NCBI GenBank assembly: GCA_902780135.1
Contig: CACZEK010000004.1
Span: 7,146-71,145, forward strand
Reading direction: 5' to 3'
DNA length: 64,000 nucleotides
From: an uncultured bacterium
GTDB taxonomy: Bacteria; Verrucomicrobiota; Lentisphaeria; Victivallales; UBA1829
The position numbers and the translations under genes were made by a program. Under the pieces are notes generated by a model. It ran no database searches. It was not told where the DNA came from and saw only the letters and a list, made by a program, of their open reading frames with translations. This document shows positions 9,066-16,189 of the stretch, piece after piece (position 1 is the stretch's first letter; every line of letters starts with the position of its first letter).

Positions 9066-9869
9066 ATGGCAGCTATCACCCCGCAAATGGTCAAGGAACT
9101 GCGCGACAAGACCGACGCAGGCATGGGCGAGTGCAAGAAGGCCCTCATCGAAGCGAACGGCGACATTGAAGCCGCTGTCGATATCCTCCGCAAGGCCGGT
9201 ATCGCCAAGAGCGCGCACCGCGCCGACCGCGCCACCGCAGAAGGCAAGATCTTCGTCGCCGTCGACGGCAACCAGGCGCTCATGCTCGAAGTCTGCTGCG
9301 AGACCGACTTCGTCGCCAACAACGAAAAGTTCCTCGAATACGGCAACGGCGCCGCGAAGAAGATCCTCGCGAACACCACCGGCGACGGCGACGTCACCGA
9401 GGCCGCGCAGAAGTCCGAAGAGACCGAGCTCGCCGCCCTGTTCTCCAAGTTCGGCGAGAAGATGATCATCCGCCGCGCCCTCCGCTACACCACCGACCAG
9501 AAGATCGCCTACTACATCCACTTCAACGGAAAGATCGGCGTCCTCCTCGACATCGGCGGCGAAATCGACGAAGCCGGCATCAAGAACACCTGCCTCCAGA
9601 TCTGCGCCTCCAATCCGCAGTACGTCAACTCCTCCGAAGTCCCGGCCGACGCGATCGCCCACGAAAAGGAAATCGCCACCGCCCAGCTCAAGGAGAGCGG
9701 CAAGCCCGAGAACATCATCGAGAAGATCGTCGCCGGCAAGATCAACAGCTGGTACGGCGAGATCTGCCTCGTGAACCAGCCCTGGATCCTTGACAACAAG
9801 ACCACCTTCGGCAAGCTCTTCCCGAAGGCCACCGTCAAGCGTTTCGCCCGCTGGGCCGTCGGTCAGTAA
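9066..9869 (+). CDS. tsf: Elongation factor Ts
   Basis: MAAITPQMVKELRDKTDAGMGECKKALIEANGDIEAAVDILRKAG (UBA-like N-terminus of EF-Ts). Immediately after rpsB. Confidence 0.95.
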   Translation: MAAITPQMVKELRDKTDAGMGECKKALIEANGDIEAAVDILRKAGIAKSAHRADRATAEGKIFVAVDGNQALMLEVCCETDFVANNEKFLEYGNGAAKKILANTTGDGDVTEAAQKSEETELAALFSKFGEKMIIRRALRYTTDQKIAYYIHFNGKIGVLLDIGGEIDEAGIKNTCLQICASNPQYVNSSEVPADAIAHEKEIATAQLKESGKPENIIEKIVAGKINSWYGEICLVNQPWILDNKTTFGKLFPKATVKRFARWAVGQ

Positions 9870-9901
9870 TTCACTCCCGACAGTTTCTCCGAAACTCCGA
9901 A

Positions 9902-9940
9902 CCCGATCCGGTTTCCGCCGGACCGGGTTTTTGCTTTTTT
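9902..9940 (+). terminator. tsf intrinsic terminator (its 3' half is also the first copy of the repeat boundary motif)
   Basis: CCCGATCCGG-TTTCCG-CCGGACCGGG followed by TTTTTGCTTTTTT. Confidence 0.7.
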
Positions 9941-10171
9941 GCGCTTACGCGAAGCAGAGTGCTGCAGCAGTCAAGGACCAGTTCATGTGCCGTCGCGAAG
10001 CACGGCACTGCTAAAGTGGAGGACTTGTCCTCCCCGCCGGACCGGTTTTTTGCTTTTTTGCGCTTACGCGAAGCAGAGCGCTGCAGCAGTCAGGGACCAG
10101 TCCTTGTGCCGTCGCGAAGCACGGCACTGCTAAAGTGGAGGACTTGTCCTCCCCGCCGGACCGGGTTTTTT
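9915..10171. repeat. Tandem 119-bp structured intergenic repeat: two full units plus the boundary motif of a third
   Basis: CCGCCGGACCGG occurs at 9915, 10034 and 10153, an exact 119-bp period. The units differ at about 6 positions. Each holds hairpin GTGCCGT-C-GCGAAGC-ACGGCAC, hairpin GGAGGA-CTTG-TCCTCC and CCGGACCGGG+T-run. Confidence 0.9.
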
Positions 10172-10307
10172 CATGTCGCCCCCCCCTGCCTTGTTGAACT
10201 AAAAAACGTTGCCGTTCGCGTTTCGCGGAAAAAAGACAGTCGAGCGTAAGCGAGCTTACCGAGGCGGCGCAGCCGCCCCCAGCGAAGCGTGACGCATTGC
10301 GTCCTAA

Positions 10308-10375
10308 GTGCCGGAAGCGAAGCCCGGCACTGCTAAAGTGGAGGACTTGTCCTCCCCGCCAGACCGGGTTTTTCA
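10308..10375. repeat. Diverged extra copy of the 3' module of the 119-bp repeat
   Basis: GTGCCGG-AA-GCGAAGC-CCGGCAC then TGCTAAAGTGGAGGACTTGTCCTCCCCGCCAGACCGGGTTTTT. The last ~48 nt are near-identical to units 1 and 2. The first hairpin is kept through a compensatory T:A to G:C change. Confidence 0.85.
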
Positions 10376-10381
10376 TGTCTG

Positions 10382-10534
10382 TCACATTGGAATCTGCAGC
10401 AAATGAAGCAATGCCTTACAAAATTCTACTCCGAGTTGAAAAAGTGTGATGATCGTGTCGGGTCCCAGGTTGTGCATGATAAGTGATACATAGCCCAGAC
10501 GGCTCCAGTAAAAAGATACTATGTTCTTATTCAT
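10382..10534 (-). CDS. Hypothetical 50-aa ORF in a low-GC islet (speculative)
   Basis: Own translation: MNKNIVSFYWSRLGYVSLIMHNLGPDTIITLFQLGVEFCKALLHLLQIPM. GGAAGGAG SD 7 nt upstream of ATG. Not in the supplied ORF track. Local GC is visibly lower than the flanks. Confidence 0.3.
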   Translation of the reverse strand: MNKNIVSFYWSRLGYVSLIMHNLGPDTIITLFQLGVEFCKALLHLLQIPM

Positions 10535-10747
10535 AGTATTTCTCCTTCCGAGTGCGGTTGTTTATGAATGCACTCTGTCGAAACCGGGGCGTCAAAAAGG
10601 GGGAAAGAAACCGATGCTGGCATTTCCCGCGTAACCTCAGGGCAGGAAGGTTGAGAGCCTGCAACGGAGAGATGGTTCCGGAAACCGCCTTTTTTCCCAT
10701 TTGTCCGGCCCGTACGCGAAATAATAAGAAAAAAGCGGGAAAGCGGA

Positions 10748-10776
10748 TTGAAAATCAGGAGAAAAGGGTGTATATT
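10748..10776 (+). promoter_or_regulatory. Candidate promoter of tig
   Basis: TTGAAA-N17-TATATT. Followed by inverted repeat CTCAAA-N5-TTTGAG (10782..10798). Confidence 0.55.
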
Positions 10777-10880
10777 ACATACTCAAATCTTTTTTGAGAA
10801 GGTCCCCGCAACCGCGCGGGACCGTCCGGATCCGTTACCGACACAACATTCAGATAACCAATCACGAAGGCAAGACGAAC

Positions 10881-12209
10881 ATGTCCAATCCCACCTGGAA
10901 AGAACAATTCACCCTCACCATCACCGACACCGACGTCTGCGGCCGCGACGCGAAATTCGTGCTCCCCGCGGAAGCCTCCAAAGACCTTTTCCTGACCGCC
11001 GCGAAGGGCGTCGCCCGCAAGGCGCAGATCCCCGGATTCCGTCCCGGCAAGGCCCCGATCGCCATGGTGAAGGCGCGCTATAAAGGCTACATCGACGAGG
11101 AAGCCGGACGCCTGGTCCAGGTCGCCGCGTACGACCTGCTCTCCAAGAAGGCCGACGAGCTCGACATCATCTCCTATAGCAAGCTCGAGCCGGAAGGGAC
11201 GCTCGAAGAGGGCAAGGAATTCACGATGAAATGCGATTTCGAGATCGCGCCCGAATTCGAGCTCCCGGACTACAAGGACCTCGGCGAAGTCGCGGCCTCC
11301 GAGGACGTCGCCAAGATCGAGGAAGACCTCATCGAACGCGCCAAGGCGCAGTACAGCAGCTTCGTGAAGATCGAGGACGCTGCGAAGGAAGGCGACATGC
11401 TCCACGTCTCCTACGAGAGCGATTTCGCGCTCCCCGAAGACGCCTCCGATTCCCTGAAGCGCGCGGTCAAGAACGATTCCGCCTGGATCTACCTGATCGG
11501 ACAGGAAATGATCCCCGGCGTGAACGCCGCGCTCACCGGCGCGTCCGTCGGCGACGAACGCGAATTCACCGCCGAGTTCCCCGCCGACTGGCGCGAGGAA
11601 GGCCTCCGCGGCAAGAAGGTCACCTACAAGATGAAGATCCACGACGGCCAGCGCCGCGAGCCGATCGAAGACATGGCGAAGCTCGCCGAGAAGATGGAGT
11701 TCAAGTCCGCCGAAGAGCTGACGAAGTTCTACCACGACCTCGCGACCCGCCAGGCGGAGATCATGAGCCGTTCCAAGACGATGGAGTCCATCCAGGCCGC
11801 CATCCTCGAAAAGGCGCCGCAGTTCGACCTGCCGAAGAAGTCGCTCGAGACCGCCACGGACAACGAGTACAAGCTGCTCCAGTACGCGGTCGGACAGGAC
11901 AAGGAAGCCCTTGAGAAGTTCGAAGCCGAGAAGGACCAGCACATGGAAGAGGCGAAGAAGAAAGCCTCCGAACAGCTCCGCAAGAACTTCATCATGCGCA
12001 AGATCGCCAGGATCGAGGAAGTCAAGCTCTCCGAGCAGGAAATCGCCCAGGCGATCCAGAACATGGCGCAGCAGACCCGCATGGAGCCCGCCCGCCTCGC
12101 CGAGATCCTCCAGCGCACCGGCCGTCTCAACGAGCTTGAGATCGAGCTCCTCGTGGAGAAGACCCTCGGCGTGCTCGCGGAACGCCGCATGAAAGCCGCC
12201 GCGAAGTAA
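10881..12209 (+). CDS. tig: Trigger factor
   Basis: [13 protein letters not shown].. with [16 protein letters not shown] (ribosome-binding signature GFRxGxxP). Upstream of clpP-clpX as in many bacteria. Confidence 0.93.
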
Positions 12210-15094: not shown

Positions 15095-16189
15095 ATGACC
15101 ATTGACGAAGTCAAAGCGCACGGCGCGGACCTGACCGAACGCCTGTCGAAGCTGTCGAGCTATCTGCACGTGGACGAGACTCTGGCGCAGATCGCCGAGA
15201 TCGAAAAGACCATGGCGCAGAACGATTTCTGGGACGACAAGGAGAAGGCGCAGGCGACCGTGCAGAAACTCTCCTCCTGCAAGAACATCGTGGAGCCGTT
15301 CAACAAGCTCAAGCGCGAGGCGGACGACTTCCTCGCGATCGCCGAACTCGCCGAGGAGGACCCGTCGTTCCTGGAGGAATCCGACGACGCCTGGGCGAAG
15401 CTCGAAGCCGCGCTTTCCAAGCTCGAGATCGTGAGCTTCCTTTCCGGCAAGTTCGACCGCTGCAACAGCTTCGTGTACATCCATGCGGGCGCGGGCGGCA
15501 CCGAGTCCTGCGACTGGGCAAGCATCCTGCTCCGCATGTACCGCCGCTGGTTCGAACGCCGCGGATTCCAGGACGAGATCATCGACATGCAGCCCGGCGA
15601 CGAGGCAGGCATCAAGAGCGCGGTCCTGAAAGTGACCGGCGAGTTCGTCTACGGCTACATGCGCGCCGAACGCGGCGTGCACCGCCTCGTCCGCATCTCC
15701 CCGTTCGACGCCAACGCGCGCCGCCATACGTCGTTCGCCTCCGTCGACGCCTTTCCGGAGATCGAGGACGAGATCGACATCGAGATCGACGAGAAGGACC
15801 TCCGCGTCGACACCTACCGCGCGTCCGGCGCGGGCGGCCAGTACGTGAACCGTACGGACAGCGCGGTCCGCATCACCCACCTGCCGACCGGCGTGGTCGT
15901 CTCCTGCCAGGTGGAACGCTCCCAGCACAAGAACCGCGCGATGGCGATGCAGATGCTGAAGGCTCGCCTGTACGAACTCGAAGAGGAAAAACGCCGTCAG
16001 CAGGCGGCGCAGATCTCCGGCGAGAAGACGGACAACTCCTGGGGCAACCAGATCCGCTCCTACGTGCTTCAGCCGTATCAGATGGTGAAGGATCTCCGCA
16101 CCGGCGTGGAGACGGGCAACACCGCCGCCGTGCTCGACGGCGACCTGGACCAGTTCGTCGAAGCCTGGCTTCGCTCCGGCACGAAATAA
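15095..16189 (+). CDS. prfB: Peptide chain release factor 2 (single uninterrupted frame)
   Basis: SPF tripeptide (RISPFDANARRHTSFASV) and GGQ (SGAGGQYVNRTDSAVRITH). 364 aa with no in-frame UGA near codon 25. Confidence 0.95.
   Translation: MTIDEVKAHGADLTERLSKLSSYLHVDETLAQIAEIEKTMAQNDFWDDKEKAQATVQKLSSCKNIVEPFNKLKREADDFLAIAELAEEDPSFLEESDDAWAKLEAALSKLEIVSFLSGKFDRCNSFVYIHAGAGGTESCDWASILLRMYRRWFERRGFQDEIIDMQPGDEAGIKSAVLKVTGEFVYGYMRAERGVHRLVRISPFDANARRHTSFASVDAFPEIEDEIDIEIDEKDLRVDTYRASGAGGQYVNRTDSAVRITHLPTGVVVSCQVERSQHKNRAMAMQMLKARLYELEEEKRRQQAAQISGEKTDNSWGNQIRSYVLQPYQMVKDLRTGVETGNTAAVLDGDLDQFVEAWLRSGTK

Follow-up and report, generated by a model that had tools for sequence, protein, structure and literature searches.

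The long spacer between tsf and tig in this uncultured member of the Victivallales is, in our reading, a cluster of interspersed repeats of the REP/BIME kind that has been locally re-duplicated, and we put the probability of this reading at about 0.8. The window, by which we mean the whole stretch of 64,000 nucleotides that was analysed, holds this cluster in a single place. Our conclusion draws on the anatomy of the spacer, on the membership of its modules in a dispersed family, on the covariation of their hairpins, on empty and one-unit forms of the locus, and on flanking duplications that we observed both here and elsewhere. The REP-like family is new, the kind of repeat is ordinary, and the insertion signature is unusual. 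An odd kilobase would thereby be explained as ordinary genome "litter" and not as an array of RNA genes, which spares a follow-up directed at small RNAs or terminators, and a previously undescribed repeat family, defined by a covariance model, is linked to a lineage of uncultured rumen Lentisphaeria.

The gene order around the spacer includes rpsB upstream and clpP-clpX downstream, and the spacer itself is laid out as T-X-T-X-T-Y-T, where T is a terminator arm (Table 1). The original prediction had described a tandem array of two near-identical 119-bp units followed by a third, diverged copy. Indeed, TRF returned the 119-bp period at 9915-10171 with 2.2 copies, 95% matches and no indels, and a repeat search gave 96% identity between the units at 9915-10033 and 10034-10152; the near-identity holds, with five differences (at 9927, 9960, 9974, 9983 and 9985) in place of the roughly six that had been counted. 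A 57-nt sub-repeat recurs at 9995, 10114 and 10317 with 96-98% identity, and the window contains three copies of a 34-nt core, for which shuffles give an expectation of 0. We recovered the terminator 3' arm, CCGCCGGACCGG(G) plus T-run, at 9915, 10034 and 10153, together with all the hairpins that had been described, namely the 7-bp stem with its GCGAAGC cap, the linker TGCTAAAGT and the GGAGGA-CTTG-TCCTCC hairpin. The third copy is also present, as a partial one at 10306-10380, but what had been taken merely as its tail is a fourth terminator 3' arm, which starts at 10356 and has a diverged form (CCGCCAGACCGGG).

Table 1. Features of the tsf-tig spacer and its flanking genes (coordinates in the window).
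Feature	Position	Strand	Basis or remark
tsf (elongation factor Ts)	9066..9869	+	upstream gene; Pfam EF_TS on identical protein
tsf intrinsic terminator, genuine	9899..9943	+	stem 9899-9930, then T-runs
Target copy T0, terminator 3' arm + T-run (CCGCCGGACCGGGTTTTT)	9915..9932	+	repeat comparison
Module A1, diverged, two hairpins	9939..9984	+	cmsearch 21.1 bits, E = 1.7e-5
Module B1	9985..10033	+	cmsearch 70.5 bits; folded
Target copy T1, orphan terminator 3' arm + T-run	10034..10051	+	4-bp hairpin only
Module A2	10058..10103	+	cmsearch 29.9 bits
Module B2	10104..10152	+	cmsearch 71.0 bits
Target copy T2 (CCGCCGGACCGGGTTTTTTCATGTC), orphan arm + original downstream flank	10153..10177	+	
Family 2 element, about 95 nt, multi-hairpin	10210..10305	+	unrelated to modules; recurs in L109, L029
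Module C	10306..10355	+	cmsearch 63.3 bits
Target copy T3, ancestral terminator 3' arm	10356..10379	+	comparison with L149 empty site
50-aa ORF, convergent with tsf, outside the repeat	10382..10534	-	
tig promoter + leader, conserved	10708..10880	+	TTGAAA-17-TATATT at 10748-10776 (promoter scan)
tig (trigger factor)	10881..12209	+	downstream gene

The 119-nt unit is not elementary. Since the covariance model described below resolves two modules per unit, the unit is composite and consists of modules A and B, 18 nt copied from the terminator 3' arm and T-run, and a short T-rich joint. Module B1 runs from hairpin 1 (GTGCCGT-C-GCGAAGC-ACGGCAC) through the linker TGCTAAA to hairpin 2 (GTGGAGGACTTGTCCTCC); module C has GTGCCGG..CCGGCAC as its hairpin 1 and the same linker and hairpin 2 as B1, and in module A1 hairpin 2 is decayed and of the GTCAAGGAC..GTCCTTG type. 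The family 2 element (..CGCGTCTCGCG..GGCGGCGCAGCCGCC..GGACGCAACGCGTCC) immediately precedes module C; it is 86% identical to positions 930-833 of L109 and 75% identical to positions 274-370 of L029. With five modules of family 1 and an element of the different family 2 sitting together, the spacer is a mosaic of the kind seen in BIMEs. As had been stated before, it is not a CRISPR array, for the units abut, show 96% identity along their entire 119 nt and have no unique spacers. Coding by the array is unlikely because 119 is not divisible by 3 and the number of copies varies, and the same two properties speak against the spurious ORFs that cross it. The description of about 1 kb as non-coding was partly wrong, as a 50-aa ORF and the tig promoter and leader, the latter 82-89% identical across 13 related loci, lie inside it.

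Is the module confined to this locus? The search for further copies that the original prediction had proposed found them outside the window: the core module is shared by over 100 further metagenome contigs and by two related GTDB genomes (L013 and L022, with a tig product 94% identical), while the window itself holds a single cluster. For the metagenome scan we used the hairpin 2 pattern GTGGAGGRCTTGYCCTCCC as query and obtained at least 120 matching stretches, counted over all contigs, a few of them chance matches. Almost all the others share the same context, a module of about 47 nt in which hairpin 1, with the pattern GTG-NNNN-(N)-GC-GNA-GC-NNNN-CAC, is followed by a conserved 7-nt linker, T(A/G)C(T/C)N(C/A)A, and then by hairpin 2. 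The modules stand singly, in pairs or in spacer-less head-to-tail arrays with a period of 44-48 nt (L029, L040, L102 and L140).

We aligned 82 distinct modules, on which the covariance model R1 is based. In this alignment 95.5% of the stem cells are paired, and double compensatory changes are found at four hairpin-1 pairs and at one hairpin-2 pair (R-Y). The covariation score is 0.245 versus 0.088 in shuffles; none of 500 shuffles reaches it, and slid controls all stay at or below 0.10. Hairpin 2 is fixed in this alignment by the search pattern, which required GTGG, and an independent sample was drawn via hairpin 1 alone. There, too, hairpin 2 covaries, with the combinations GTCA..TG, GTCC..GG, GTTG..CA, GTAG..CT and GTGC..GC, and a second hairpin-2 type appears, CAC-NNN-loop-NNN-GTG, which has no GT(A/G)G-like head. 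Run unfiltered, R1, the kind of model whose construction had been proposed, reports five modules as significant in the 64-kb window; they all map to the + strand between 9939 and 10355. In 0.63 Mb of related loci it gives 168 matches.

The proposed check against Rfam gave no matches at gathering thresholds over the whole window; a permissive search of 9800-10950 gave nothing relevant, the top sub-threshold match being that of the tsf terminator to ctRNA_pGA1, at 23.8 bits where 45 are required. An exact 30-mer of the core, a query that is too specific, had no match in 185,579 GTDB species representatives, and the hairpin-2 pattern had none in viral contigs. In the literature we found no paper on the repeat sequence or on repeats in Lentisphaerae/Victivallales.

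Outside the window the modules have a preferred setting. Where both neighbouring genes of an extragenic module are known (39 cases, filtered ORF calls), modules lie between convergent genes in 26 instances, between tandem genes in 7 + 4 and between divergent genes in 2. Of 52 upstream genes, 42 are co-oriented with the module; many copies directly adjoin a stop codon, and in 7 of 79 modules a T-run follows hairpin 2 directly, which makes these copies terminator-like. The order found in the window, with tsf, the modules and a small ORF on the opposite strand, is a typical setting of the family. The modules occur in both orientations, and in two validated gene cases they lie in frame, where 48 nt provide 16 codons (read RAVAKQGTASVEDLSS) and add repeats of the form RAxAKxGTAxVEDLSS, 16 residues long, to real proteins. 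Orthologous genes for a PMT_2 membrane glycosyltransferase contain one module in L090 (1531-1579) and L024 (1926-1974) and three in L040 (3378-3522), and a gene for a HrpB-type helicase in L029 (2262-2455) contains, between the HA2_C and HrpB_C domains, four modules in tandem. We had also considered that many modules lie inside ORFs, but these ORFs proved to be mostly spurious read-through frames or start-codon extensions (L118, L135).

The history of the locus can be followed in its relatives. Twelve rumen MAGs (Lentisphaeria or Victivallales) encode proteins with 92-95% identity to the tig product, and the contigs in which Tsf is identical stem from several public metagenome assemblies. In all relatives the tsf terminator is present once; strains whose Tsf is identical have a single terminator and lack modules, and in two related species in which tsf adjoins tig the spacers, of 279 and 339 nt, are module-free. 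The locus L149 is an empty site, with tsf, one bidirectional terminator and a convergent small ORF (76% identical) with nothing between them. The locus L145 encodes the same small-ORF protein as the window and carries, besides a family-2 element and module C, precisely one A+B unit, which differs in sequence from both units of the window; a collapse in the assembly is possible for this locus. Two A+B units are found in the window and in the independent ENA contig L001. Based on the states of L149 and L145 and on its adjacency to the small-ORF stop codon, which it still adjoins, the arm at 10356-10379 is the ancestral 3' arm, and the arms at 9915, 10034 and 10153 are copies. Between the window and the module-bearing metagenome loci there are no orthologous filled and empty sites, and none of these loci overlaps the window.

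The surroundings of tsf vary as well. Four contigs (L002, L003, L008 and L009) have a 100% identical Tsf (267 aa), yet the gene downstream of tsf differs, being of the MBOAT family in L003 and L009 and replaced by other sequences in L002 and L008, and tsf lies upstream of tig in only 2 of the 12 tig relatives. The tsf neighbourhood is often rearranged within the group.

Are the duplicated arms of the window a general property of the modules? For 75 modules we compared the 40 nt past hairpin 2 with the 260 nt upstream. A direct repeat that starts 0-2 nt past hairpin 2 was found for 11 of the 75 modules, from about 8 independent loci, versus 2 of 134 controls (Fisher p = 3e-4), and about 85% of the modules are without a flanking duplication. 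The duplications measure 13-70 nt and produce a "target - modules - target" pattern with two kinds of target: the 3'-terminal 13-70 nt of the upstream gene, stop codon included (L077, L132/L026, L064, L092), or a terminator 3' arm with its T-run (the window, L009 vs L003, L084). The inserted DNA always ends at the foot of hairpin 2 on its 3' side, and its 5' end is variable. Modules flanked in this manner lie at 1727-1886 of L077, 7800-7960 of L132 and 4340-4620 of L026, and also in L064, L092, L054 and L084; in L026 a module and a 62-nt duplicate of the gene end together make up a tandem period of 111 nt.

We therefore propose for the window that modules landed in the terminator common to the convergent tsf and 50-aa ORF genes, and that each landing would have left the terminator 3' arm and T-run on both sides of the insert. 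One event would have brought in family 2 and module C, with 24-25 nt duplicated, and another modules A and B, with 18 nt duplicated. Recombination or slippage between the duplicated arms may then have doubled the A+B block, which would account for the exact 119-bp period. The order of these events is one that we infer from the compared loci. The duplications would arise during insertion, through staggered breaks or through priming at the precise end of hairpin 2, and the cluster probably has no dedicated function beyond providing stable hairpins in any read-through 3' UTR of tsf.

This insertion signature does not fit cut-and-paste by a RAYT or by an ordinary transposase. A precise 3' end, a variable 5' end and duplications of 13-70 nt recall target-primed, SINE-like insertion or the capture of hairpin-ended fragments at staggered breaks, the latter of which would occur at gene 3' ends and terminators. 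That the modules spread by such a mechanism, undescribed for bacterial REP-like repeats, we regard as unlikely; if it were true, the family would represent a new class of bacterial mobile element, non-autonomous and also capable of building peptide repeats in frame into genes. The target duplications offer a handle on how REP-like elements move in general. Two further ideas were discarded. Template switching with junction microhomology is contradicted by a strict overlap of only 0-2 nt, the C after CCTCC being forced by the search pattern, and a pairing of the duplicated gene ends as template and variable repeat, as in a DGR, by differences that are not adenine-specific and by tsf targets that are non-coding. 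Among 137 ORFs within 1.2 kb of modules Pfam revealed no recurrent transposase (25 of the 76 matched families were listed, all housekeeping), and a phmmer search of about 0.96 Mb in six frames with IS200/IS608 TnpA queries gave no match, a weak test at this scope. Since no RAYT or IS200-like transposase was found near the modules, the case for their mobility consists of the presence/absence comparisons and the target duplications.

Could the cluster instead be a set of small structured RNA genes or cis-regulatory RNAs, with 3' ends of their own and selected as RNA? The fold of the region is more stable than that of shuffles (z = -4.1), and this, like the covariation of the hairpins, the retention of G-N-A in the hairpin-1 loop on one strand, the usual co-orientation with the upstream gene and the occasional T-runs directly 3' of hairpin 2, would agree with an RNA. 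The array, however, has no promoter-like site on the + strand in the promoter scan, and only the first terminator passes the terminator scan. This tsf terminator (9899-9932 in the scan, -22.4 kcal/mol, z = -4.2) is the sole terminator-like site, so that the units do not each end in an intrinsic terminator; the arms at 10034, 10153 and 10356 fail, having no 5' partner. They are orphan 3' halves of the tsf terminator (CCGCCGGACCGGG plus T) and fold to 4-bp CCGG hairpins only. Moreover, G.T and A.C mismatches are equally frequent in the stems (13 each), so there is no strand asymmetry of the RNA type, the module occurs in both orientations and in frame within helicase and glycosyltransferase genes, Rfam holds no match, and the array is wholly absent from close relatives. 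An array of small RNAs with their own terminators, which the original prediction had listed as a candidate, is thus not borne out, and we judge a selection as RNA to be highly improbable. The candidate of a stacked terminator or insulator fared little differently. A selected back-up stack between tsf and the convergent small ORF or tig would match the location exactly at a bidirectional terminator between convergent genes, the T-runs within 12-13 nt of GC-rich hairpins, and the use of hairpin 2 as a terminator stem elsewhere (for example in the context of L084). It finds no support in the window, however, because the repeated arms are orphan 3' halves without a 5' partner, which fold weakly and fail the scan; the T-runs here are too distant from hairpin 2 for a canonical intrinsic terminator, a single terminator suffices in the relative with the same gene pair (L149), and the copy number differs between strains. 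We consider such a stack very unlikely.

A reading in which the terminator region was simply duplicated locally in tandem, or misassembled, and no dispersed family is involved would be in line with the absence of any other copy in the window and with the contigs L006 and L007, which break inside unit 1 as repeats that trouble an assembler do. It is exceedingly improbable, given that the module is found in more than 100 unrelated contexts and that the independent contig L001 carries an identical spacer of 1011 nt; the two units also differ at five positions, so reads can separate them. In addition to L006 and L007, the public contig L147 ends inside the first repeat unit or a module, and the family fragments short-read assemblies of genomes that bear it. 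The strain-variable copy number could serve as a strain marker.

We return to the REP-like reading and its closest known relatives. By the refined definition, a REP consists of GT(A/G)G and a palindrome, as in the Pseudomonas fluorescens element GTGGGAGGGGGCTTGCCCCCGAT (PMC3686654), and REPs are known inside ORFs, in mosaics and at gene ends (PMC3733652). The modules resemble REPs and BIMEs in their short GC-rich hairpins, hairpin 2 (GTGGAGGGCTTGCCCTCC) having the same layout of head, stem, CTTG and stem, in an apparent preference for extragenic positions at gene 3' ends and between convergent genes, in their mosaics with other repeats, in their variability between close strains, and in their occasional copies in ORFs or service as terminator stems. 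Hairpin 2 can be written as GTGG+AGGRCTTGYCCT+CC, but the GTGG was imposed by the search and in the sample drawn via hairpin 1 only GT is constant. Since positions 3-4 covary with the 3' end, the supposed tag belongs to the stem, and the GG of the module's GTGG is base-paired and covarying, unlike in a REP. Other differences are a fixed pair of unlike hairpins with a conserved linker, the GC-GNA-GC apex of hairpin 1, and a head-to-tail arrangement, in the window as in L029, L040, L102 and L140, in place of inverted REPIN doublets. No RAYT gene was found near modules in about 0.96 Mb, and no RAYT flanked by repeats (REPtron) in the module surroundings searched, both of which are weak tests. The insertions are flanked by target duplications of 13-70 nt, a property that we did not find described for REPs; the word "duplication" occurs 0 times in the text of PMC3733652. 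The original suggestion of a REP/MITE-like dispersed family is supported by the more than 100 contigs, the convergent sites and the covarying hairpins. Features of a MITE are lacking: the inserts bear no terminal inverted repeats, their 5' boundary varies, and the duplications, from 13 to about 70 nt, have no fixed length.

Other modular repeats can be compared as well. Pneumococcal BOX elements are built as boxA-boxB(n)-boxC with defined terminal modules, and mycobacterial MIRUs are not known to be hairpin pairs; both share with our family modular units of about 45-60 nt, strain-variable head-to-tail copies and an intergenic position by gene ends, but no sequence relationship. The Rickettsia palindromic elements (RPEs) are about 100-150 nt long and AT-rich and are not known to be tandemly arrayed. 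The modules are shorter than these, and the window copies are all extragenic. Elsewhere in the family the in-frame copies behave like RPEs (cited in PMC3733652 as refs 13-14), which are likewise palindromic repeats able to lie in frame in coding sequence while the gene stays intact. With its GC-rich hairpins, T-runs and regularly spaced repeats, the cluster looks like a series of intrinsic terminators or a CRISPR array, from which it differs in that the first copy alone is a complete terminator and unique spacers are missing.

The loop of hairpin 1 keeps G-N-A on one strand (GAA 42, GGA 12, GCA 10, GTA 7). The sequence GCGNAGC forms an exceptionally stable mini-hairpin in single-stranded DNA. 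The conserved loop may reflect a single-stranded form of one particular strand, as RNA or ssDNA, for example an intermediate, and because it is conserved on one strand a function of the modules is possible.

Part of the long spacer is accounted for by the 50-aa ORF (MNKNIVSFYWSRLGYVSLIMHNLGPDTIITLFQLGVEFCKALLHLLQIPM). It has a strong Shine-Dalgarno sequence, AAGGAG 7 nt before the ATG, and is called as a gene in L001 and in public assemblies, with the exact protein in 8 contigs. Among 5.8 billion proteins it has only two homologues, both of 50 aa and with 98% and 76% identity; the central 30 residues are conserved with synonymous changes, and no Pfam domain was found in it. The ORF shares its terminator with the convergent tsf and is absent where the tsf-tig spacer measures 279-339 nt. 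Together with its upstream region to about 10707 it forms a stretch of lower GC content (43-50%).

A last observation concerns a second site of the window. One gene of the window ends near 16189, and in two related species, L013 (9300-9326) and L022 (9290-9326), an inverted module stands directly past its stop codon. The window has no module at this gene end, and the last codons of the gene (GCCTGGCTTCGCTCCGGCAC) resemble an inverted hairpin 1; the match of the model at 16147-16184 on the - strand (15.6 bits, E = 0.0014) may be a relic or may be due to chance.
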